Shown: positions 1 through 18,587 of the stretch, in pieces | Position numbering within the stretch: position 1 is the first letter of the stretch | How the letters are laid out: the number at the start of each line of letters is the position of its first letter | DNA from: Deltaproteobacteria bacterium | Lineage (GTDB): Bacteria; SAR324; JACQKK01 | Assembly (NCBI GenBank): GCA_029879595.1 | Contig: JAOUPZ010000001.1 | Location: 1 to 29,539, forward strand | Direction of reading: 5' to 3' | DNA: 29,539 bases | The notes under the pieces: generated by a model | Databases searched by the model: none | What the model was told of the DNA's origin: nothing | Seen by the model: the letters and a program-made list of their open reading frames with translations, nothing else | Program-made: the position numbers and the translations under genes

Positions 1-84
1 CCGGAAGAAACCGTCGGGTCTGTGGCAAAATGCGGCATCGCCCGGATGGACATGATATGAGTTATGGAAAACATGACTCGCACG

Positions 85-110
85 GGTTTACAACCTTCCG
101 GTTGTCAACC
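85..110. promoter_or_regulatory. Inverted repeat GGTTTACAACC-TTCC-GGTTGTCAACC, possible operator or hairpin
   Basis: 11-bp arms with one mismatch and a 4-nt loop, ending 18 nt before the ATG at 129. No known regulator motif recognised. Confidence 0.3.
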
Positions 111-128
111 GCCGCCAGAACAAAAGAC

Positions 129-884
129 ATGAAATCAACAATGCCCAAAAGATTCCTGCTGATCCTTCTGCTGCCGGTTTTTGCGGCGGGCTGCCTTGCC
201 GCCCGGCCCCTGGCCCCTCATCCCAGCGTGGTGTATGTGCCCCGGCCCGGACAGATCAACTCCACCCTGGGAGAGGACGAGTTGCAGACCATGTTCACCA
301 CCTCGCCGGACCGGAATCCCGATGGCCTGGGGGTATACGAGCTTATCTGGCCGCAGTCCAGCATGACCCTTGTGCCCTGGGAGCTGCAACGCTTTCGCGA
401 GGAACGCAGGAAAACCGCTTATGCCCGCAGCGAAAGTGAACACGAGCAGGCCCTGAGCGACATGGAAAAAACCTTTGGGAACCATGTGATCTTCCAGGGA
501 TACCTGATTTCCTACTTCTCCCGGTTCACAGAACCTGGGTTTTATGAACCAGAGGGGATATACCTGCTTGACGACAGGGGCCGTAAATTCAAGCCTGTCA
601 AAACCGGCACCGGTTACAGGGACTACCAGCAGGAAATCCGGCTGCGGGAAACCGGAGCCGGCTACAAACTGGAGGAATCGGCCTATCACTTCGGGTATCC
701 TCACCTGTATTTCCCCGGTGATGCCCTGACCCCGCAGACCAAAGCCCTGATGCTGTTTTTCGCCGCATCGGACAAGCGCATCCGGTTTACCTGGATATTT
801 GACCCGGACTATGTGGTGCCCGGTGGCTCCGTCGATGCTCACATGGGCCGCGACATGGACAAACTGAGGCTGCGGGGCAACTGA
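129..884 (+). CDS. Putative lipoprotein of unknown function (about 251 aa)
   Basis: From ATG 129 (or 141): MKSTMPKR, hydrophobic FLLILLLPVF, then lipobox-like AAG|C (Cys codon 192-194). The track's start at 30 adds a hydrophilic stretch that would mask the signal peptide. Confidence 0.7.
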   Translation: MKSTMPKRFLLILLLPVFAAGCLAARPLAPHPSVVYVPRPGQINSTLGEDELQTMFTTSPDRNPDGLGVYELIWPQSSMTLVPWELQRFREERRKTAYARSESEHEQALSDMEKTFGNHVIFQGYLISYFSRFTEPGFYEPEGIYLLDDRGRKFKPVKTGTGYRDYQQEIRLRETGAGYKLEESAYHFGYPHLYFPGDALTPQTKALMLFFAASDKRIRFTWIFDPDYVVPGGSVDAHMGRDMDKLRLRGN

Positions 885-1051
885 TTCCGGGGGGATTCAC
901 CCGGCGTCAACACTGGCAATTTCTTCCACCAGAACCAGCTTGAAAAGCACCTGAAAAACTCGGTAAAACCTCCGGGCAGTTTCCGCAATCCGGGTTTTTC
1001 CCCTGCCGATGGCCTTAAAAAACACGAAATAACACAATCCGAGGAATGATA

Positions 1052-2050
1052 ATGACCACCCAGATTGACCTGATCATCAGGGCCCTGGACAACTTCAGCC
1101 CGGTTTTTGAAAAACTCGATAAATCCTTTTTGAAATGGGGCAGCAATGGCGCCGGCGCCGTGGACGCGCTGGAGGACATCAACGGCAGCATGGAGGATCT
1201 GGTTCGGCAGACCGGGATGGCTGAGGGTGCGCTTGCCGGCTTTTCCGCCTCCACCACCCGCCTGATGACCGAGGCGGCCGAGGAGCAAAGAGCCCGGAAT
1301 GAGGAGTTTTTGGCGGCCCGTGAAACAGCAGCCCTGGATCACCATGACCGAATGCTGGCCCTGGAACAGGACGTAATGGCGCGAAAAACCGCCCAACGGG
1401 AAATTTTCCGCGCCCAGGAGGAACAGGCCCAGGGCGCACACTACGCCGGCCTGCTGGCCGCGCAGCAGGCTGCGGGCGACCAGGCGGTCATGGTGGACGC
1501 CGCCACCCTGATGAGCAGGTACAGGCTGTATGAGGATTACCGCAACGCCATTTTGAACCTGGCCCGGGACAAGGGTGGCCAGCTGGCCCGAGCGGCGAAA
1601 GCCCTGGCTGTGGCCGAGGCCACCGTGATGGCCTATCTGGCGGCCAATAATGCCCTGGCCAGTGCGCCCTATCCCTTCAATATTCCCCTGGCAGCGCTGG
1701 TGCTGGCCCAGGGACTGGCCAACGTGGAGCGGATAAGACAGGTGGGAATAGCCCACTCCGGCCTGGAAAACGTGCCCGAGGATGGAACCTATGTGCTCAG
1801 ACAAGGGGAACGGGTTCTCAGCCCGGCACAGAACCGTGACCTGAGCCGCTTTCTCGATGGCGGCCCTGGAGGCAGCAGCCATGGGGTCAGGATCGATTCA
1901 ATCGTGATCCATATCCTGGAAAACGCCACTTCCGCCGAAGCCCTGCTGAACATGAATCCCGCGGACCTGAAAAGGATCGTGGCGGAAAAAATATTTCCGG
2001 CTATGGATGAACTGGCCGACCAGGGCATCCGCCCGGCCTTTACGGAGTAG
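1052..2050 (+). CDS. Short phage tail tape-measure-like protein (332 aa)
   Basis: GAGG RBS at 1041-1044 favours ATG 1052. N-terminus IDLIIRALDNFS, an Ala/Glu/Gln-rich coiled coil, the hydrophobic segment AKALAVAEATVMAYLAANNALASAPYPFNIPLAALVLAQGLANVERI and AHSGLENVPEDGTYVLRQGERVL are all typical of siphophage tape-measure termini. Confidence 0.75.
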   Translation: MTTQIDLIIRALDNFSPVFEKLDKSFLKWGSNGAGAVDALEDINGSMEDLVRQTGMAEGALAGFSASTTRLMTEAAEEQRARNEEFLAARETAALDHHDRMLALEQDVMARKTAQREIFRAQEEQAQGAHYAGLLAAQQAAGDQAVMVDAATLMSRYRLYEDYRNAILNLARDKGGQLARAAKALAVAEATVMAYLAANNALASAPYPFNIPLAALVLAQGLANVERIRQVGIAHSGLENVPEDGTYVLRQGERVLSPAQNRDLSRFLDGGPGGSSHGVRIDSIVIHILENATSAEALLNMNPADLKRIVAEKIFPAMDELADQGIRPAFTE

Positions 2051-2057
2051 AAACCAC

Positions 2058-4190
2058 ATGAGCCTGAATGTTTCCAGCTGGTTTATTGAGCATTTGAAAG
2101 GAAGGTCCCTTTCACCTTTGCGCCGATTCACCCTTGGAGGCAGCGATTATTCCGACAAGGTTCTGCGCTGGCCCAGTCTGAACTTCCGGGCCGACACAAT
2201 CGACCTGGGAACCACCCAGGTTGAACTGGATGCCACCGGGAACCATTTCCAGTTCCTGGTCAACTGCAACCACCTGTTTTCCACCAGCGCGGAAATCAGC
2301 CTGGGGCTCACCCACCCGCAAAGCGGCCCGGAGTTCCTGAATCTGTATCTGGGAGGAATTTCCAATATCCACTTTGAACGTGGTGGAACACGCATCAGGC
2401 TTCAGATGCAGGGTAAAACCAAGGATCTCACAGACACGGCGCTGGGCAGCGAAGCGGAATCATTGGGGTTGGATTTCACCAGCAGCATGCATTTCCCCAG
2501 TGATTTCGTATGGATGCTGGTTACATCCTATGGCGGAATGTCTGCCCTTGAAAGCACGTCCAATCCCGACATCGACTATGAAACCTGGCTCAAATGGCGG
2601 CAGGACAATATCCTCAAGGACACCAGGGTCAAAGCCTATCTCACCGGCGAGAAGATTTACCAGATCATCAACACCCTGGCGGAAATGGACACCAGAGTGG
2701 TGGCCTTTCAGGGTGGGCGGTTATTTTTTTCCGATATGTTTCAGCCCTACAGCGAGGGGGGGATCCACTTTGACCTGAGCCGGACGCTCGATTTCAACTG
2801 GGAGCTGGGACCCTCCAGGATCATCAACGAGTTCACCGCGGAGGCGGGTTACAACCCCTCCACCGGAAAGTTCAACAGCAACTACACCAAAACCGATGAT
2901 GTATCCCAGAGCAACTTCGGCATCCGTTCCCGGCGACACGGGTCGAAGGGGGTATGGTTCGCCCGAAGCTTCGATGGCATTTTCATGGCGCAGGACAAGG
3001 TTTACATACACCGGAACCCCCTGGCCAGAATGTCCATCAGGACCACCCTGGGAGACGGACTTCTTTATAACCTGGGCGAGATCCTGTCCATTACGGATTC
3101 CCATCTTGGACTGGACGGGAAAAATTTCAGGCTCATCGGCCAGGGAATCGACCTGGATTCCGGAATAACCCATCTGCAACTGGAAGAAGCCGCTCACCGC
3201 CAATGGGAACACCGGCATATGGTCTCGTCATACAACCTTACCGTGGACACCATCACCAGAACCACATCCGGGAAATATCTGGCCATTGAGGAACTGGTGT
3301 TCTTCCACCAGCTGCACAAGTCGGACGGTAATGATAATTTTTCACCTACCGGTCTGTATGCCCAGCGATTGCTGGACCTGGGCGGCGGATCATTTGTATT
3401 CGCAGGAGCGCCCTCATCCGGTTCTTATTCCAGGGTGATTCAACGCTCCTCAGATAACTGCGAAACCAGCACCATGGTTTTCTCGGGAATTCCCCAGTCT
3501 TCAAATATGAGGGATCTGTTCCGGTGCAGTTCAAGCCATGTCCTGCTTTCCGCCGATTCAGGCCAGGTCTATTTATCCACAGATATCGGATCTTCCTGGG
3601 TGCTCACGGATGTGATCAGTCCCGGCACACACATCGGCAAGTTTTTTCATCCCTATCCGGACAGGATTTTCGGAATTTCGGGCGGACAGACCTACGGACT
3701 GGAGGGGCTTCACATCTGGGAATCAAACAACCTGGGGGTCAGTTTCAGCTATAAGACAACCATTTTCTCCAGCGGGGTATATACCATCTGTGGAGTTCAT
3801 GTTCTTTCCGGGTCGGAGTTTCTTATCGGCCACAACGGATTAGACCACACGCACCTGGGGATCACCAGGGTATCCATGAATTCCTCAGAAGACATGAGCT
3901 GGGCAACAGTGAAGACCAATGCGAGCTTCAGCCATATTCTCCGGACAACCTCTGGCACTCTGGTCATGGGGTACTACGAGTATCTGACATCGGCCGGTGG
4001 GTCGATCCTGATGTCCACGGACAACGGTTCCAGCTGGCAGGAATACTCCCGGGTGGCCATGCAGGGAAACATTCATCTCATGCCCCAGCCGGATGGATCT
4101 CTGGATGCCGTTATTTCAAGGACATCCGCTGGGATCAGAACCGACAGGCACAAATGCTTCGACCCCGGCTTTGCCTTCCCGGCAAGTTGA
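2058..4190 (+). CDS. Phage tail hub/central-fibre-like protein with a C-terminal BNR/Asp-box beta-propeller (710 aa)
   Basis: Starts 7 nt after the TMP-like stop. Residues up to about nt 3200 resemble tail-hub proteins (IINEFTAEAGY...DDVSQSNFGIRS...YNLGEILSITD...FRLIG...LQLEE). The C-terminal part has Asp-box-like motifs QRSSDNCETS (~3441), YLSTDIGSSW (~3570), WESNNLGVSF (~3717) and LMSTDNGSSW (~4008). Confidence 0.6.
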   Translation: MSLNVSSWFIEHLKGRSLSPLRRFTLGGSDYSDKVLRWPSLNFRADTIDLGTTQVELDATGNHFQFLVNCNHLFSTSAEISLGLTHPQSGPEFLNLYLGGISNIHFERGGTRIRLQMQGKTKDLTDTALGSEAESLGLDFTSSMHFPSDFVWMLVTSYGGMSALESTSNPDIDYETWLKWRQDNILKDTRVKAYLTGEKIYQIINTLAEMDTRVVAFQGGRLFFSDMFQPYSEGGIHFDLSRTLDFNWELGPSRIINEFTAEAGYNPSTGKFNSNYTKTDDVSQSNFGIRSRRHGSKGVWFARSFDGIFMAQDKVYIHRNPLARMSIRTTLGDGLLYNLGEILSITDSHLGLDGKNFRLIGQGIDLDSGITHLQLEEAAHRQWEHRHMVSSYNLTVDTITRTTSGKYLAIEELVFFHQLHKSDGNDNFSPTGLYAQRLLDLGGGSFVFAGAPSSGSYSRVIQRSSDNCETSTMVFSGIPQSSNMRDLFRCSSSHVLLSADSGQVYLSTDIGSSWVLTDVISPGTHIGKFFHPYPDRIFGISGGQTYGLEGLHIWESNNLGVSFSYKTTIFSSGVYTICGVHVLSGSEFLIGHNGLDHTHLGITRVSMNSSEDMSWATVKTNASFSHILRTTSGTLVMGYYEYLTSAGGSILMSTDNGSSWQEYSRVAMQGNIHLMPQPDGSLDAVISRTSAGIRTDRHKCFDPGFAFPAS

Positions 4191-4261
4191 TTTTGCAGGA
4201 CTGCAAACCCCACCTGATGCCGGGGAAATCCGGACCGGCTTCCTTGCTGAGTGGAGGCTTT

Positions 4262-4765
4262 TCAGGCCACCACTGTTTTTTCACCCTTGGTATTGGGTGA
4301 TCCATCGGCCACCGCCAGGGCCTCAATATTGAAAACCAGGGTGGAGTTGGGAGGGATGTTTCCCATCTGGCGCTTGCCATAGGCCATCCCGGGTGGAATG
4401 ACCAGCTGCCGCCTTTCTCCGGGCTCCATTCCGACGATACCTTCCTCCCAGCCCTTTATCACTCTGCCGGAGCCCAGCGGGAACTCAAACGGGCGTCCCC
4501 GGTCCAGCGAGCTGTCAAAGCGGGTACCGTCAATCACCCATCCGGTGTAGTTGACCTTGATACTCATTCCCTTGGCGGCCGACTTTCCCGAACCGTCCTT
4601 CAATACGGCCACCTTCAGACCAGAGTCGGTCTCACGGTAGCTGGCTTTGGGCAGCATCCTGAAAGTCTTCAAAAAATCGTTGCCAGGCGGAGGAGCCTTG
4701 CTCTCCCGGGGAGCGCCTGCCGCCCCCTGAGTCTGGATTCCCGATTTTCCAACATTCATCGCCAT
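4262..4765 (-). CDS. FKBP-type peptidyl-prolyl cis-trans isomerase (167 aa)
   Basis: VNYTGW..DGTRFDSS, PFEFPLGSGRVIKGWEEG, LVIPPGMAYG and IPPNSTLVF motifs. AGGAGGTG SD 5 nt before ATG 4765. Confidence 0.93.
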   Translation of the reverse strand: MAMNVGKSGIQTQGAAGAPRESKAPPPGNDFLKTFRMLPKASYRETDSGLKVAVLKDGSGKSAAKGMSIKVNYTGWVIDGTRFDSSLDRGRPFEFPLGSGRVIKGWEEGIVGMEPGERRQLVIPPGMAYGKRQMGNIPPNSTLVFNIEALAVADGSPNTKGEKTVVA

Positions 4766-4997
4766 TGTTTCACCTCCTGACTGCCGGCGGATCATCCCGG
4801 TTTCTGCTCTCCGGGTGATCATGCCGGGCGTTTCTGAAGAAATGCATGCTAAAAAATAAGGAAAGCAAATCACACACCAATCAGACCTTTCCTCGCGAGA
4901 TCCTGCCCGTTTGCCCCCTTGCCCTGAGGAGCAGGGGGGGCTGCACGGGAAAATATTCCGCCGCAAGGGCTGATTTTTCTGTCTTTCAGGGAAATAT

Positions 4998-5022
4998 TTC
5001 CCGCCCCGACGGGGTGCGGGAA
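4998..5022 (-). terminator. GC-rich hairpin downstream of argF, possible terminator
   Basis: TTCCCG-CCCC-GAC-GGGG-(TG)-CGGGAA, about 20 nt past the argF stop. Weak U-tract. Overlaps the perfect palindrome GGGAAATATTTCCC (4989-5002). Confidence 0.4.
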
Positions 5023-5043
5023 GGTGAGCTTTTGGACACAGGT

Positions 5044-5967
5044 TCAGGAACCGGTGTTTTCCAATAAAAACTTCATCAGCGCCTGCTGGGCGTAAAGCCT
5101 GTTGTCGGCCTGCTGAAAAATGATGGAGCGGGGGTGATACACCATTTCCTCGCTTATCTCGAAACCGGGATGAATGGGCATATCATGCATGATGAAGGCG
5201 TCGCTCCCGGACAGATTCTCCTCGTTCAGCTGATACGGGATCATCTGGGCAACCCGCCGCTTTTTTTCGTCCTGGTATGACTCGTCATTGAAGAACTCCA
5301 TATCAATCCAGGTATCTGTATAAACAAACTGAGCCTTGCTTACAGCGGCCTTCAGGTCCGTCGTTCTTTCAACCAGTCCGGTCGCCATCAGCCGCTCCAT
5401 CAGCGCCGGGTCGTCAGCCGCCTGATTGGTTTCAGGGGTAACCAGGACAAGCTTCCCCCCCACCTGGGATAAACCACAAGCCAGGGAATTGGCCACGTTG
5501 TTGTGAATGCCGACATAGACCAGGGTCTGCCCCTGGAAGGTCCCAGCGTTTTCGTAGATCGTAACCAGATCTGCCAGGGCCTGACAGGGATGAAACTTGT
5601 CGTCGCAACCATTTATAACCGGTGCCCGGGAATGCCGGGCCAGGTTAATGACATCGGAATGATGTTTAAGCCGGGCCATGAGAATATCGGTCTGGCTGGA
5701 AACATACCGGGCCTCGTATTCAATGGGAGAGATAGAAAAATTCGATTTCCCCCAATCCATGACCACAACCTGCCCCCCAAAGCGCCCAAAGCCGACTTCA
5801 AAGGAAATCCTGGTGCGGGTGGAAGTTTTCTGGAACAGCATCAGCAGAACCTTCCCCCTGAAACAGTCGCGGTAGGATTCCGGATTGTTTTTCATGTCGA
5901 TGGCAAGGTGTACCAGAGCGTTCACCTCGTCAGCACTAAAATCATCCAGGGTAATGCAATGTTTCAT
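5044..5967 (-). CDS. argF: Ornithine carbamoyltransferase, divergent motif type (307 aa)
   Basis: FQKTSTRTRISFE carbamoyl-phosphate motif, INGCDDKFHPCQALAD, QADNRL. Ornithine-site motifs read YTDTWIDM and HDMP. Start at ATG 5967 (MKHCITLDDFS). Confidence 0.85.
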   Translation of the reverse strand: MKHCITLDDFSADEVNALVHLAIDMKNNPESYRDCFRGKVLLMLFQKTSTRTRISFEVGFGRFGGQVVVMDWGKSNFSISPIEYEARYVSSQTDILMARLKHHSDVINLARHSRAPVINGCDDKFHPCQALADLVTIYENAGTFQGQTLVYVGIHNNVANSLACGLSQVGGKLVLVTPETNQAADDPALMERLMATGLVERTTDLKAAVSKAQFVYTDTWIDMEFFNDESYQDEKKRRVAQMIPYQLNEENLSGSDAFIMHDMPIHPGFEISEEMVYHPRSIIFQQADNRLYAQQALMKFLLENTGS

Positions 5968-6106
5968 AATGGACCCTGCAAAATCATGATGAAAACCGTA
6001 TTCCTGAAAAAGAAAAATCGAAAACAAGAACCATATCAGATAAACAGGTGTTTTTCAAAGAATTTTTTCTGGCGGCCCCCCTTGAACGCAGGGCATCAAA
6101 CAACTT

Positions 6107-6133
6107 TCAAAATTCAAACCGGCTGGCCGATAA
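6107..6133 (+). promoter_or_regulatory. sigma28 (FliA)-type promoter
   Basis: TCAAAATT-N11-GCCGATAA against the consensus TAAAGTTT-N11-GCCGATAA: perfect -10, exact spacing, oriented toward a chemoreceptor gene. Confidence 0.65.
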
Positions 6134-6390
6134 CCGCACACGACAGGCAAATCACGCCAGTGGTGCCCCTGTCAGTCCATTCGGTTTCTTCCTGGGCTGA
6201 TAAACCAACTTCCGAGGTTTTCGACTCTCCGGACATATTATCCGGTATGATTACTGGAAGTTTGTTTTGTGGGCCATGCCGGCAGTCCCCAAAATATCTA
6301 TTGCCAAATTATATACGTGTATCGTAAGCTTAAAAATAAAATTCATTAATATCCTTTTCCTCCGGGGCTGTTATTTTAACTTAAACTGTG

Positions 6391-6406
6391 TTGTAAATCT
6401 GTACAA
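6391..6406. promoter_or_regulatory. Palindrome TTGTA-N6-TACAA in an AT-rich island
   Basis: Perfect 5-6-5 inverted repeat. Cognate regulator not recognised. Confidence 0.3.
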
Positions 6407-6483
6407 CGTTTACGCGGATATAAGTCGGCTCCGCCAGCGTTGTCAGGGGGAATCGAAAGTTTTAAGGGGATCAGGGGTCCCAG

Positions 6484-6497
6484 TCGATGTTTATCAA
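6484..6497. promoter_or_regulatory. FNR/DNR-like box TCGAT-N4-ATCAA
   Basis: 9 of 10 matches to TTGAT-N4-ATCAA, about 150 nt upstream of the heme chemoreceptor. Confidence 0.35.
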
Positions 6498-6646
6498 GGC
6501 AGTTGGGAAAACAGCATCGAATTTCTTTTTGATTATGCGGACAACCACCCGGTAGAACACCCCGGGATATTGCCACGACGCCATTCGATGTCCTCGCGGC
6601 CATCGAAAAAGCAGGTCCGCATGAGTCATCCAGTCCGGCGTATGAT

Positions 6647-8164
6647 ATGATAAAAAATCGTTCCATCCAGGCCAAGGTACTGCTCAGGTTCTCGCTGTAT
6701 TTCCTGTTTTTCTTCGTAGTCACCCAGCTCGTGTTCATGATCAGCTTCCGCGAATTCTCCACCCGGTCGGCCCAAAACAAGGCCACCCTTATTGCCGAAC
6801 TGGTGAAAAACAACCTGACATCGCTGATGAAGCTGGGCCTGATTCAGATGCGCGATGAATACCTGAATCCCCTGTTATCCGGTCACGATATCAATGAGAT
6901 AAAGGTCTTCAGAGGGCATAAGGTGCAGGAACTGTTTGGAACTCCACCAAACTTTGTCAAGCCGCGGGACAACTTCGAGACTCAGGTGCTGAACACCGGC
7001 AAGGAAAATGTCCGGCTAAATGAAGGGCTGCTAACGGCCACCTACCAGATTGTCATCCCGTATCTTTCCACCAACGAGGGCGCCGTTCATTGCCCGCTCT
7101 GCCACATAAACTCCAAGGAGGGGGATGTCCTGGGGGCGGTAAGCATTGAACTGAATCTTACCAACGAAAGAAAACTGGGGGTTTTCGCATTTGTCATAAT
7201 CATCTTCGCGTCCGGGGTTCTTTCGATACTGTTCCTCTACCGGACGCACCGCTTCATGTTGAAGTCCTTCTATGAGCCGATAAGCGATGTTATCAACTGG
7301 CTCACCAACGCCAGTGAATACTTGGAGAATGCCGCAAACTCCTTTTCCGAATCCAGCCAGGTGCTGGCCGACGGTACTCACACCCAGGCTTCCACGCTGG
7401 AGAAAAACTCGGACACCATACAGGAAATGGCCGGCAGGACCAAAAAGAACGCCGATAACTCCATGAATGCCCGGAAAGAAACCGATAAGGCGGTGGACAC
7501 GGCCAACAAGGGCGGCACTGCCACATCGCGCATGGTGGAGGCCATTCAGGAAATCAAAAGCTCATCCGACGAGTCCGTGAAAATTGTACGGACCATTGAC
7601 GAGATCGCCTTCCAGACCAACCTGCTGGCCCTAAACGCGGCCGTTGAAGCCGCCCGGGCCGGAGAATCCGGCAAGGGCTTCGCAGTGGTGGCCGAGGAGG
7701 TCCGCAATCTTGCCAAACGCAGCGCCGATGCCGCACGGGAAACCAGCCAGCTTCTGGAAAAGGCGCAGCAAAAAGCTGAGATGGGGGTGGAGGTGGCCGA
7801 GGAAGTTAATACCATGCTGCAAAATGTTGTGAAGAGCATACAGGTGGTGGGTGAATTCACCGGGGAGATAACCTCGGCGATTTCACTGCAATCCCGGGCC
7901 TTGGAAGACCTCAGCACCTCGATGATACACATGAACGATGTGACCCAAAAAACCGCCTACAGCGCCGATCAGACCGCCACCACCAGCATGGAACTCACCA
8001 CCCATGCCCAGGAGATGATCAATAACGTGGACAAGTTGCGACTGCTGGTCACCGGCAGTTCAACCCGGAAAAGGCTTTTTGGCGGCAATGGCGGCAATGG
8101 GGGTAAGTTTCCATTCTTCAGGAACAGGCCCCAGCTTGAGGATGTGAAGAAAATTGGCCGTTAG
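6647..8164 (+). CDS. Methyl-accepting chemotaxis protein with a periplasmic c-type heme motif (505 aa)
   Basis: Two TM segments, CPLCH at 7091-7105 just before TM2, and the signalling hairpin [40 protein letters not shown]. Confidence 0.95.
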
Positions 8165-17153: not shown

Positions 17154-18170
17154 TCAGGGAAGATTCTTGAGCTGCTTAAGGGCCATTTTAGCCGGCAAAG
17201 GCAGATAGCCGTCCTTCACCACCACTTCCTGGCCCTGCCGGGACAGCACGAAGCGCAGAAACTCGGCGGTGATCTTGTCCAGCGGTTTGCCCGGGGTTTG
17301 AACTATGTAGATGAACAGGGCCCGTGACAGGGGGTACTTGCCCTTCAGGACATGGGCGTATTCCGGGGGATAGGCCTTGCCGCCGTTTTTCTTGCTGATG
17401 GGCACCACCCTCACCCCGGAGGTCTTATAGCCGATGCCCGAATAGCCGATGGCCCCCAGGTCGGATTCCACGCCCTGCACCACCGAGGCCGAGCCGGGCT
17501 GCTCCTTCACCCGGTCCTTGAAGTCGCCCTTGAACAGGCCCACCTCCTTGAAATAGCCATAGGTGCCCGAAGCCGAGTTGCGGCCATACAGACTGATGGA
17601 ACGGTTGGCCCAGGGGGCGGTCAGGCCCAGCTGTCCCCAGGTGAATATGTCCCGGGGCATCCCCCCCCGCCGGTTCTTGGAAAATATGGCGTCAACCTGG
17701 GGCAGGGAGAGGCTTTCCAGGGGGTTGTCCTTGTGAACGAAGATCGCCAGGGAGTCCAGCGCCACCCCGAAGCGGGTCGGCTTGAAGCCGAAACGGGACT
17801 CGAACCTTTCGATCTCGCTGTTTTTCATGGCCCGCGACATGGGACCCAGCTGCGCCGTGCCCTCGACCAGCGCCGGGGGGGCCGTGCTGGAACCCTTGCC
17901 TTCCACCTGGATATTGACGTTGGGATATATCTTGCGGAAGGTCTCGCTCCACAGGGTCATCATGTTGTTCAGGGTGTCCGAGCCCACGCTGTTCAGATTG
18001 CCGGAGACCCCGGACACAGGCTTGTATTCCGGCAGGTCGGGATCGACCTTGATCTGAGCGGCCGCGGGTGAAACCAGCGCCAGCCAGAAAACCAGCGCCA
18101 GCGGCAGGAGCGTTCCGTAAACAGGGTGTCCGGTTGATCTGGGGGTTTTCATGAATCTCAATAATTTCAT
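17154..18170 (-). CDS. pstS: Phosphate-binding periplasmic protein
   Basis: SVGSDTL, IQVEGKGSSTA, GPMSR, YGRNSASGTY, YPLSRALFIY. Sec signal ending PAAA. Start could be 18170 or 18152, and neither has a clear SD. Confidence 0.96.
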   Translation of the reverse strand: MKLLRFMKTPRSTGHPVYGTLLPLALVFWLALVSPAAAQIKVDPDLPEYKPVSGVSGNLNSVGSDTLNNMMTLWSETFRKIYPNVNIQVEGKGSSTAPPALVEGTAQLGPMSRAMKNSEIERFESRFGFKPTRFGVALDSLAIFVHKDNPLESLSLPQVDAIFSKNRRGGMPRDIFTWGQLGLTAPWANRSISLYGRNSASGTYGYFKEVGLFKGDFKDRVKEQPGSASVVQGVESDLGAIGYSGIGYKTSGVRVVPISKKNGGKAYPPEYAHVLKGKYPLSRALFIYIVQTPGKPLDKITAEFLRFVLSRQGQEVVVKDGYLPLPAKMALKQLKNLP

Positions 18171-18189
18171 CAGAAGTTTTGCGGGGCCG

Positions 18190-18349
18190 TAGTATTAGCC
18201 GGTCATAGTATTAGCCGGTCATAGTATTAGCCGGTCATAGTATTAGCCTGTCGTAGTATTAGCCGGTCATAGTATGAGCCGGTCGTAGCATGAGCTGACC
18301 GCAACATTAGCCAGCCATAGCATGAGCCAGCCATAGCATGGGCCAGCCG
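18190..18349. repeat. Tandem array, 10 x 16 nt, consensus TAGTATTAGCCGGTCA
   Basis: Units start at 18190, 18206, 18222, 18238, 18254, 18270, 18286, 18302, 18318 and 18334. Units 1-3 and 5 are identical, and divergence increases toward 18349. No spacers. Confidence 0.97.
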
Positions 18350-18450
18350 GGGCATCGGGGCTGTTTTGCCGGTTCCACGTCCTTATCAATTTTTCGCGGA
18401 GTCCTTCACTGCTGAAGGAACCCCCGGGATTCTGAACAAAAGCATGAACC

Positions 18451-18494
18451 CGTATTTTTAAAATTTTATTAGCGTTTTGTTAGGATTTTGTTAG
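18451..18494 (-). promoter_or_regulatory. Pho-box-like 11-bp direct repeats with -10 element of the pst operon
   Basis: Minus strand reads CTAACAAAATC CTAACAAAACG CTAATAAAATT TTAAAAATACG (exact 11-nt period). TAAAAT at 18468-18463 lies 9 nt after the second CTAACA. An 11-bp period is the established geometry of PhoB/PhoP/SphR boxes. Confidence 0.7.
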
Positions 18495-18521
18495 GGAGGC
18501 CGGATATTTTTCCGGCAGGAA

Positions 18522-18552
18522 TTCCCCGCCCTCTCCGAAGGAGCGCGGGGAA
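18522..18552 (-). terminator. Hairpin between the SQR-like gene and the pst promoter
   Basis: TTCCCCGC...CTCC-GAA-GGAG...GCGGGGAA, 35 nt past the stop codon. No U-tract. Confidence 0.5.
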
Positions 18553-18587
18553 CCCGGTATGATCACTGGCCGGCGCTAAGGCCGGTC

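Follow-up and report, generated by a model that had tools for sequence, protein, structure and literature searches.

A vertically inherited phage-derived head, packaging and tail gene cluster, probably gene-transfer-agent-like, in a clade of uncultured sediment bacteria

Introduction

To our knowledge, genes have been identified for only a handful of gene transfer agent (GTA) families, most of them from Alphaproteobacteria, Bartonella and Brachyspira and joined lately by some from gut Firmicutes. The genes of the Rhodobacter capsulatus agent (RcGTA) occupy five loci of ~20 kb in total, while BaGTA of Bartonella and VSH-1 of Brachyspira are independent exaptations of tailed-phage structural modules kept by their hosts (PMC9662315). 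A further report describes GTA-like packaging in gut Oscillospiraceae and Ruminococcaceae (PMC12946183). Here we describe a 13-kb gene cluster whose right end lies in the 29.5-kb stretch of DNA shown above (contig JAOUPZ010000001.1, analysed over its full length of 29,539 nucleotides and called the window below). Judging from its gene content, chromosomal position and pattern of substitution, this cluster is likely to be a vertically inherited, domesticated phage-derived head–packaging–tail set, GTA-like in character.

The cluster and the assembly break that divides it

The window is the whole of one contig (C354) of a metagenome-assembled genome (MAG; G000 in the numbering used here for the family’s genomes) that consists of 486 contigs and is 89% complete with 4.5% contamination; its position 1 is an assembly break. 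Near that break, the initial annotation had described an orphan two-gene cassette of tail genes. In a blastn comparison of contig ends, however, a second contig of the same MAG, C189, proved to overlap the end of C354 by 147 bp at 99.3% identity, and the join is bridged unbroken in two independent assemblies – by the 101,737-bp ENA contig k141_1435141 and by a 12-kb Logan contig – both of which also encode the exact hub protein. According to blastn, bases 1–8090 of the ENA contig are C189 reversed, and from base 7944 on it is C354; the genes upstream of the hub on the spanning contigs include Portal_Mu, Phage_tail_S and Phage_tube_2. C189 thus abuts window base 1 with genes for a terminase, portal, protease, capsid, connector, tube and chaperones, which contradicts the orphan description: the two tail genes looked orphan because the contig break at base 1 cuts the cluster, and the finding as originally worded is an assembly-edge artefact around a real 13-kb cluster. 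The lesson for method is that, when a phage module appears orphan at a contig edge, the neighbouring contig should be checked before any interpretation. In a relative, G003, a contig break also separates the lipoprotein gene from the chaperone T frame (G003:C15 1–600, and G003:C87), close to the break in the present MAG, which suggests a local feature that is hard to assemble.

Measured from its small-terminase candidate as far as the stop codon of the hub, the element has 13,036 bp and 15 open reading frames (ORFs), arranged in the following order and followed by the first host genes on the right (coordinates are those of the window unless C189 is given).

C189: candidate (putative) small terminase of 142 aa, named on the basis of position only
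C189: large terminase, phrog_2
C189: portal of Mu type, phrog_113 and Portal_Mu (PF06074)
C189: prohead protease, phrog_976
C189: scaffold-like or decoration protein, phrog_673
C189: major capsid protein, phrog_1005 (E = 1.4e-63)
C189: 143-aa protein without a family, first of three connector/completion proteins
C189: Neck1 or tail-completion protein, phrog_26, second of the three
C189: 144-aa protein without a family, third of the three
C189: tail tube, PF18906 (Phage_tube_2)
C189 into the window: two overlapping chaperone frames, G and T, with a −1 frameshift site
1–55, plus strand: 3′ end of the chaperone T frame, entered by −1 frameshift from the G frame on C189
1–147, no strand: assembly junction, the reverse complement of C189 bases 1–147
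57–884, plus strand: lipoprotein gene inside the tail module, with a probable signal-peptide start at 129 and the lipobox Cys codon at 192–194
1052–2050, plus strand: short tape-measure protein of 332 aa (334 aa from 1046), with PHROG matches
2058–3200, plus strand: tail hub domain of the 710-aa tip protein, gp27/Mu gp44/VgrG fold, residues 1 to ~375
3207–4190, plus strand: BNR/Asp-box β-propeller fused to the hub, residues ~384–700, by Foldseek
4170–4196, plus strand: terminator-like hairpin and T-run, overlapping the hub stop at the right end of the cluster; from a pattern scan, a consensus match only
4262–4765, minus strand: FKBP (Pfam FKBP_C), convergent with the cluster
5044–5967, minus strand: argF (Pfam OTCace_N/OTCace), convergent with the cluster

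The chaperone genes lie at 7352–7705 and 7702–7998 of the spanning contig (on which window position 1 is base 7944). Directly 5′ of the G stop there is a slippery run, GAAAAAAA(A/C) (C189 386–400, minus strand), from which a −1 slip enters the T frame; it is kept at the nucleotide level in all eight genomes compared, though the proteins are only ~45% identical. The Walker-type ATPase and nuclease aspartate motifs of the terminase are likewise invariant in nine genomes.

Upstream of the terminase genes stand the host genes atpE, atpB and atpI and that of a class-III aminotransferase, and on the right the cluster is closed by FKBP–argF. No integrase, replication or lysogeny gene lies between atpE and FKBP–argF, no tRNA was found at the element, and no direct repeat of at least 8 nt is common to both junctions, in line with the earlier remark that no att-like repeat was seen. 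The G + C content of the element is 0.606, against 0.597 for the genome. By the criteria of PMC9662315, the arrangement is one expected of GTAs and other viriforms, namely head, packaging and tail genes without integration, replication or lysogeny modules, bounded by host genes in every relative in which the bounds can be seen. A complete prophage continuing to the left of position 1 had been named as an observation that would refute the domestication idea, and it has come true by half: phage genes do continue there, but as a head and packaging module only, which ends at the atp operon. As for the flanks originally proposed, FKBP/argF is indeed host DNA, whereas the lipoprotein gene, taken then for a housekeeping neighbour, is a conserved member of the cluster. 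Apart from the cluster’s end, the window holds no further phage gene, as had been stated: the remainder consists of housekeeping genes, among them those for a chemoreceptor, pst/PhoU, SurE and an M20 peptidase.

Just upstream of the small-terminase candidate, a 38-codon ORF (C189 8994–9130, minus strand) encodes a hydrophobic peptide and is itself preceded by a promoter-like TTGTAA-17-CATAAT site; that its product is holin-like is pure speculation. When the atpE-to-terminase intergenic regions were aligned, a promoter-like TTGCCA/CATAAT stretch was loosely common to them, and nothing more. In G008, the small-terminase candidate is immediately preceded by a Peptidase_M15_3 gene of endolysin type (4989–5510 of the examined region), with a tblastn match at the corresponding place in G004 (18150–18563 of the examined region); the present genome has none there.

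Distribution, synteny and selection

Of 18 further genomes in the GTDB family, 12 have the capsid and 10 the hub; outside the family, the capsid is missing from all 69 genomes searched in other families of the class, and the hub from all 22 of the sister family. Among the genomes searched, the cluster is confined to a single clade of uncultured sediment bacteria, at the rank of family.

Within this clade, a tblastn map places the entire gene order between atpI–atpB–atpE and FKBP–argF in G003, G006 and G016. The same uninterrupted order is seen in at least seven relatives, and the same chromosomal position in at least six other genomes belonging to several genera. The left flank is atpE in the three genomes just named and in G010 and G018; the right flank is FKBP/argF in the same three, in G008 and in contig L008 from the Joint Genome Institute (JGI), and argF only in G010. 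The single-contig genomes G010 and G018 (1.6–1.7 Mb) retain the cluster to the right of atpE; neither gave a match to FKBP or to the lipoprotein, and the examined region of G018 gave none to argF. Where the left flank deviates, it still consists of host genes (bioB/Mrr in G008, metG in the JGI contig), and no integrase, repressor or replication gene was found within the bounds of any bounded copy.

Identities to the present genome were as follows for element genes and for host genes.

Capsid: 65–83%
Portal: 61–67%
Terminase: 49–57%
Hub: 27–46%
atpB (host): 62–82%
argF (host): 60–68%
Aminotransferase (host): 58–71%

For one within-genus pair, G016 and G003, the rate of synonymous substitution (dS) was 0.30–0.69 in the cluster and 0.35–0.62 in atpI, atpB, atpE, FKBP and argF, and the ratio of non-synonymous to synonymous rates (dN/dS) of the cluster genes was 0.18–0.62. 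Between genera, synonymous sites are saturated (proportion of synonymous differences, pS, 0.55–0.8), with the non-synonymous proportion (pN) far below pS for every gene, and all 15 ORFs are full length in 8–10 genomes. In concatenated trees of host and of element genes, the two splits with full support, (G010, G018) and (G003, G016), are the same, and no strongly supported conflict appears. The check proposed at the outset – homologues at the FKBP–argF position, dN/dS below 1 and a vertical tree – has thus come out in favour of domestication, with the same position, dN/dS of 0.18–0.62 and agreement on both supported splits. Two further traits of GTAs and viriforms are accordingly present, namely vertical inheritance with co-divergence at a stable locus, and purifying selection on the structural genes. 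Comparative analysis, in short, shows the cluster to have been inherited vertically and kept under purifying selection.

A second, divergent cluster is present in G006 (G006:C1 53000–85000), with 67% identity in the capsid and 42% in the portal, a 660-aa tape measure, a 397-aa hub that has no propeller, and a glycosyl/methyltransferase gene within the cluster; Pfam searches of the flanks were uninformative. The same contig holds a third capsid homologue (G006:C1 99518–100222). The second cluster and the third capsid homologue may be prophages or further domesticated copies.

The tail genes of the window

The two plus-strand ORFs at 1046/1052–2050 and 2058–4190 are intact and separated by a 7-nt gap, just as first described, and a GGAG lies 10 nt 5′ of the ATG of the second (2058). 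Their assignment as tape-measure-like and hub-like has held as well, through PHROG matches for the former and AlphaFold and Foldseek for the latter. The first ORF matches the C-terminal parts of five tape-measure PHROGs, best phrog_13674 (E = 1.4e-20), followed by phrog_1506, 3336, 9483 and 2854, all with E ≤ 4e-10. Its orthologues measure 289–341 aa in nine relatives, with dN/dS of 0.50 at dS of 0.44 within one genus. Its place also suits a tape measure, after the frameshifted chaperones and before the tail-tip gene, but with the lipoprotein gene intervening.

The second ORF (710 aa) has no PHROG match and no solid Pfam match. Its AlphaFold model, built from 23 homologues, reached a predicted local distance difference test score (pLDDT) of 88 and a predicted template-modelling score (pTM) of 0.85. 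The N-terminal ~375 aa are predicted to adopt the four-domain hub fold of gp27/gp44/Tal type: against solved hubs, Foldseek gave a probability of 1.00 and target TM-scores of 0.57–0.70 over ~370–390 aligned columns, with the phiCD508 needle at 0.70, Mu gp44 at 0.62, Listeria gp18 at 0.61 and the MuSo2 43-kDa tail protein at ~0.6. T5 and lambda tip proteins also match, and BFVD matches are named tail protein or central tail hub. In G010, G018 and G006:C1, the hub domain occurs alone, with ~400 aa. The C-terminal propeller resembles, again by Foldseek, the Vps10p propellers of sortilin and a Porphyromonas gingivalis sialidase; its Pfam matches are weak (PSII_BNR, BNR) or faint (DUF6242_C). It is likely to be a receptor-binding or glycan-acting module.

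The lipoprotein gene, whose ORF starts 1 nt after the end of the chaperone T frame (55), has orthologues with 33–43% identity in seven relatives, each time placed between chaperone and tape measure, and the lipobox Cys is kept in eight of eight sequences. It is absent from the reduced g11 genomes (G010 and G018, 1.6–1.7 Mb), and the protein belongs to no family in Pfam, PHROGs or ESM Atlas. Its role may lie in receptor masking or exclusion or in release, or it may be structural.

Accessory modules away from the locus

Three modules that are linked to the cluster in relatives sit elsewhere in the present genome: a glycosyl/methyltransferase gene, a tail-tip gene bearing a carbohydrate-binding module (CBM) and a GH108 lysin cassette. 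The picture of a scattered machine therefore stands in part: accessory modules are indeed off-locus, as far as MAG contigs show, while the core tail genes are not isolated and form the end of a contiguous 13-kb cluster.

In most relatives, the hub is followed on its 3′ side by a 281-aa protein, a 150-aa paralogue of its C-terminal domain, a fibre and sometimes a fibre-assembly chaperone; here and in G016, the hub abuts FKBP directly. The N-terminal domain of the 281-aa protein is a CBM-type β-sandwich (model pLDDT 75, Z ~13). The protein was considered as a candidate for the distal tail protein (Dit) and not identified as such, given this sandwich and a C-terminal domain of ~100 aa without an assignment. 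Its homologue in the present genome lies at a contig edge (C2 1–675, minus strand) beside ABC-transporter genes, where public assemblies end too. The lysin, with GH108 and PG_binding_3 domains, forms an isolated cassette among host genes together with a phrog_1544 homologue and a 105-aa ORF (C277 5636–7174); in the JGI contig L008, the GH108 lysin and its phrog_1544 partner adjoin argF beside the cluster.

The glycosyl/methyltransferase gene, of ~1000 aa, lies within the cluster, after the capsid gene, in G008 and G004, and match positions indicate the same in G011 and G005. In the present genome, it is found on the contig chain C285–C296–C178 (C285 1100–3192, C296 1–2601). At this second locus, a gene with XRE-HTH and Peptidase_S24 domains (CI/LexA-like) is divergent from the glycosyl/methyltransferase gene, with a conserved small ORF, without a Pfam family, between them. 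The same three-gene module is present in G006, G016, G014, G010 and G018, and the glycosyl/methyltransferase and CI-like genes also stand together in G003, where the comparison covered these two genes; the distance between this module and the main cluster is ~65 kb in one closed genome and ~195 kb in another. G007, which is without the element, has the CI-like gene only, and the regulator may accordingly be a host gene. A search for an operator common to the switch region of the second locus and the upstream region of the cluster, in five genomes, gave nothing above shuffled expectation.

Free-living relatives

Among 50,697 phage records, the capsid has at most 29% identity, with Ruegeria phage Tedan, roseophage RDJL Phi 1 and others as the nearest (26–29% for roseophages), and the hub has no match. 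IMG/VR contains 43 contigs with 28–55% capsid identity, several of them 37–45 kb long, and 35 of the 43 carry the ~1000-aa glycosyl/methyltransferase gene right after the capsid gene. These phages (e.g. UViG_3300007533_000006 and 3300024520_000138) resemble the element in the portal (34–46%), protease, scaffold, capsid (41–55%) and, in part, connector and tube; they differ from it in being three times longer as contigs and in not being anchored at atp/argF. At E = 1e-5, and within ±10 kb per contig, they gave no match to the element’s terminase, tape measure, lipoprotein or hub. They probably represent the free-living lineage from which the element derives.

Weighing the explanations

That the tape measure and hub might be an isolated two-gene module of a dispersed, tail-only machine, such as a non-contractile tailocin, was one suggestion of the initial annotation, and the window taken alone, with no other phage gene in its 29.5 kb and with some accessory genes off-locus, could be read in this way. 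The presence of capsid, portal and terminase genes in the same contiguous cluster overturns it: C189 abuts window base 1 with an operon-like run of terminase, portal, capsid, tube and chaperones, the order is unbroken in two other assemblies and in no fewer than seven relatives, and head genes exclude a tailocin, so that the idea now has next to no credibility. It is also very unlikely that the cluster is a functionless remnant of an ancestral prophage with its decay still to come. Such a remnant would account for the loss of tail-tip and fibre genes at the locus here and in G016, for the family members in which the element was not found and for the want of recognised lysis or regulatory genes; yet between genera, at pS of 0.55–0.8, the 15 ORFs remain full length in 8–10 genomes with pN well below pS, and within the genus dN/dS is 0.18–0.62 at dS of ~0.3–0.7, with both the frameshift site and the terminase catalytic motifs conserved. 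Similarly, the constancy of the FKBP–argF right flank beside a variable left one (atpE, metG, bioB/Mrr) might point to an active temperate phage or satellite family inserting site-specifically beside argF, the shared position being due to repeated insertion. This we consider highly improbable, as bounded copies are free of integrase, repressor and replication genes, att repeats and tRNA targets, the element and its host flanks have equal dS, the base composition of the element is fully ameliorated, a search of the 50,697 phage records gave no near relative, and structural genes only, in a unit of 13 kb, could neither replicate nor lysogenise alone. Taken together, the intact ORFs, the match in dS with the flanks and the conserved slippery site and terminase motifs exclude neutral decay and recent site-specific insertion, and suggest that selection maintains a machine for building particles and packaging DNA. 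A harder case is a particle domesticated for another purpose, be it killing, adhesion, protein delivery, defence or the supply of virions to an unrecognised satellite: the evidence for selection fits it equally well, and an embedded lipoprotein and a glycan-binding tip would suit a surface-directed function. However, conservation is as high in the terminase and portal as in the capsid, with invariant ATPase and nuclease motifs, which argues for DNA packaging as a component of what selection maintains, and we regard another purpose as rather unlikely.

The view that the cluster is domesticated and GTA-like, and not a decaying prophage, was put forward from the outset, and it draws its support from the same position across genera, the co-divergence with host flanks, the purifying selection and the want of integration, replication and lysogeny genes. 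Several points weigh against it. The element was not found in G007, a genome 92% complete in six contigs, and is absent downstream of atpE in G001, and neither tree resolves anything beyond the two splits named above. No Dit protein was identified, and neither a holin or lysis gene nor a regulator is conserved with the cluster; an endolysin was rejected as a core component, as only 3 of the family’s 19 genomes have GH108. The present genome and G016 are without the CBM, fibre and fibre-assembly genes found 3′ of the hub in most relatives, and this copy may be partly eroded. The capsid protein is as long as in the ~40-kb phage relatives, so that a reduced head, typical of several GTAs, is not indicated. 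All data come from MAGs, in which off-locus contigs could be mis-binned (4.5% contamination here); the sequence turned up in sediment DNA metagenomes only, with no RNA run among those listed, and DNA transfer by the particles is inferred.

If the cluster is indeed a domesticated GTA-like set, the host would make short-tailed siphovirus-like particles – with a tail of ~50 nm, given a tape measure of 332 aa – that would still package DNA by means of the conserved terminase and portal, as a GTA-like viriform does, and the hub propeller, joined in relatives by the CBM protein and fibre, would bind recipient cells. A more specific proposal, which we find plausible though short of probable, is that of an independently evolved multi-locus GTA family in this uncultured sediment lineage, descended from a phage lineage whose portal was of Mu type and whose capsid was linked with a glycosyl/methyltransferase. 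Its layout would comprise the 13-kb head–tail operon anchored at argF, with a lipoprotein built into the tail module; a conserved second locus, with a CI/LexA-like S24 repressor opposite the small ORF and the glycosyl/methyltransferase gene, a hint of SOS-type control and of glycosylated virions; and movable tail-tip and lysin cassettes. Were this true, it would be a clean case, from comparative genomics, of one more independent domestication among uncultured sediment bacteria, with recognisable free-living phages to compare it with and a second locus that may be regulatory; it would also widen the phylogenetic reach of host-owned DNA-packaging particles and provide genes to seek in sediment viromes.

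Comparison with known systems

Several classes of phage-derived elements were considered and set aside. Between its host flanks, the element has no integrase or transposase, att site, repressor switch, replication or lysis module of an intact temperate prophage; an F-type (non-contractile) tailocin would not have a terminase, portal, protease, scaffold and capsid directly upstream in the same orientation; and a capsid-forming phage-inducible chromosomal island (PICI) or other phage satellite is not what a full tail module without integrase and replication genes describes. Closer in kind are the vertically inherited domesticated defective prophages of enterobacteria, reportedly described by Bobay, Touchon and Rocha in 2014: like the element, these are prophage-derived sets at orthologous positions under purifying selection, whereas the element is a complete and exclusive virion-building set kept across genera, not a collection of heterogeneous remnants. 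BaGTA, VSH-1 and the gut systems have other phage ancestries and other hosts, and packaging or transfer data exist for them, while the element is represented by its genes.

The element differs from RcGTA in its protein families. The tail tip of RcGTA consists of a set of Dit, hub, peptidase and megatron proteins, in place of which the element has a single hub–propeller protein. Portal_Mu, Phage_tube_2 and phrog_1005 are, we take it, not RcGTA protein families, and the two systems are set apart by family names: the element, known here from its genes, has a Mu-type portal (PF06074), a PF18906 tube and a phrog_1005 capsid, and its host belongs to a different class. Judged by such names, no sequence-family overlap was detected, and the element is not placed in the RcGTA family, Rhodogtaviriformidae. 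In architecture, the two are alike. RcGTA of the Alphaproteobacteria, too, has a head, packaging and siphovirus-tail cluster of ~13–15 kb in the same order, from terminase through capsid to tube, chaperones, tape measure and hub, and is likewise without integration and replication genes, vertically inherited and served by accessory genes elsewhere – a multi-locus layout that the element, with its own off-locus accessory genes, loosely resembles.

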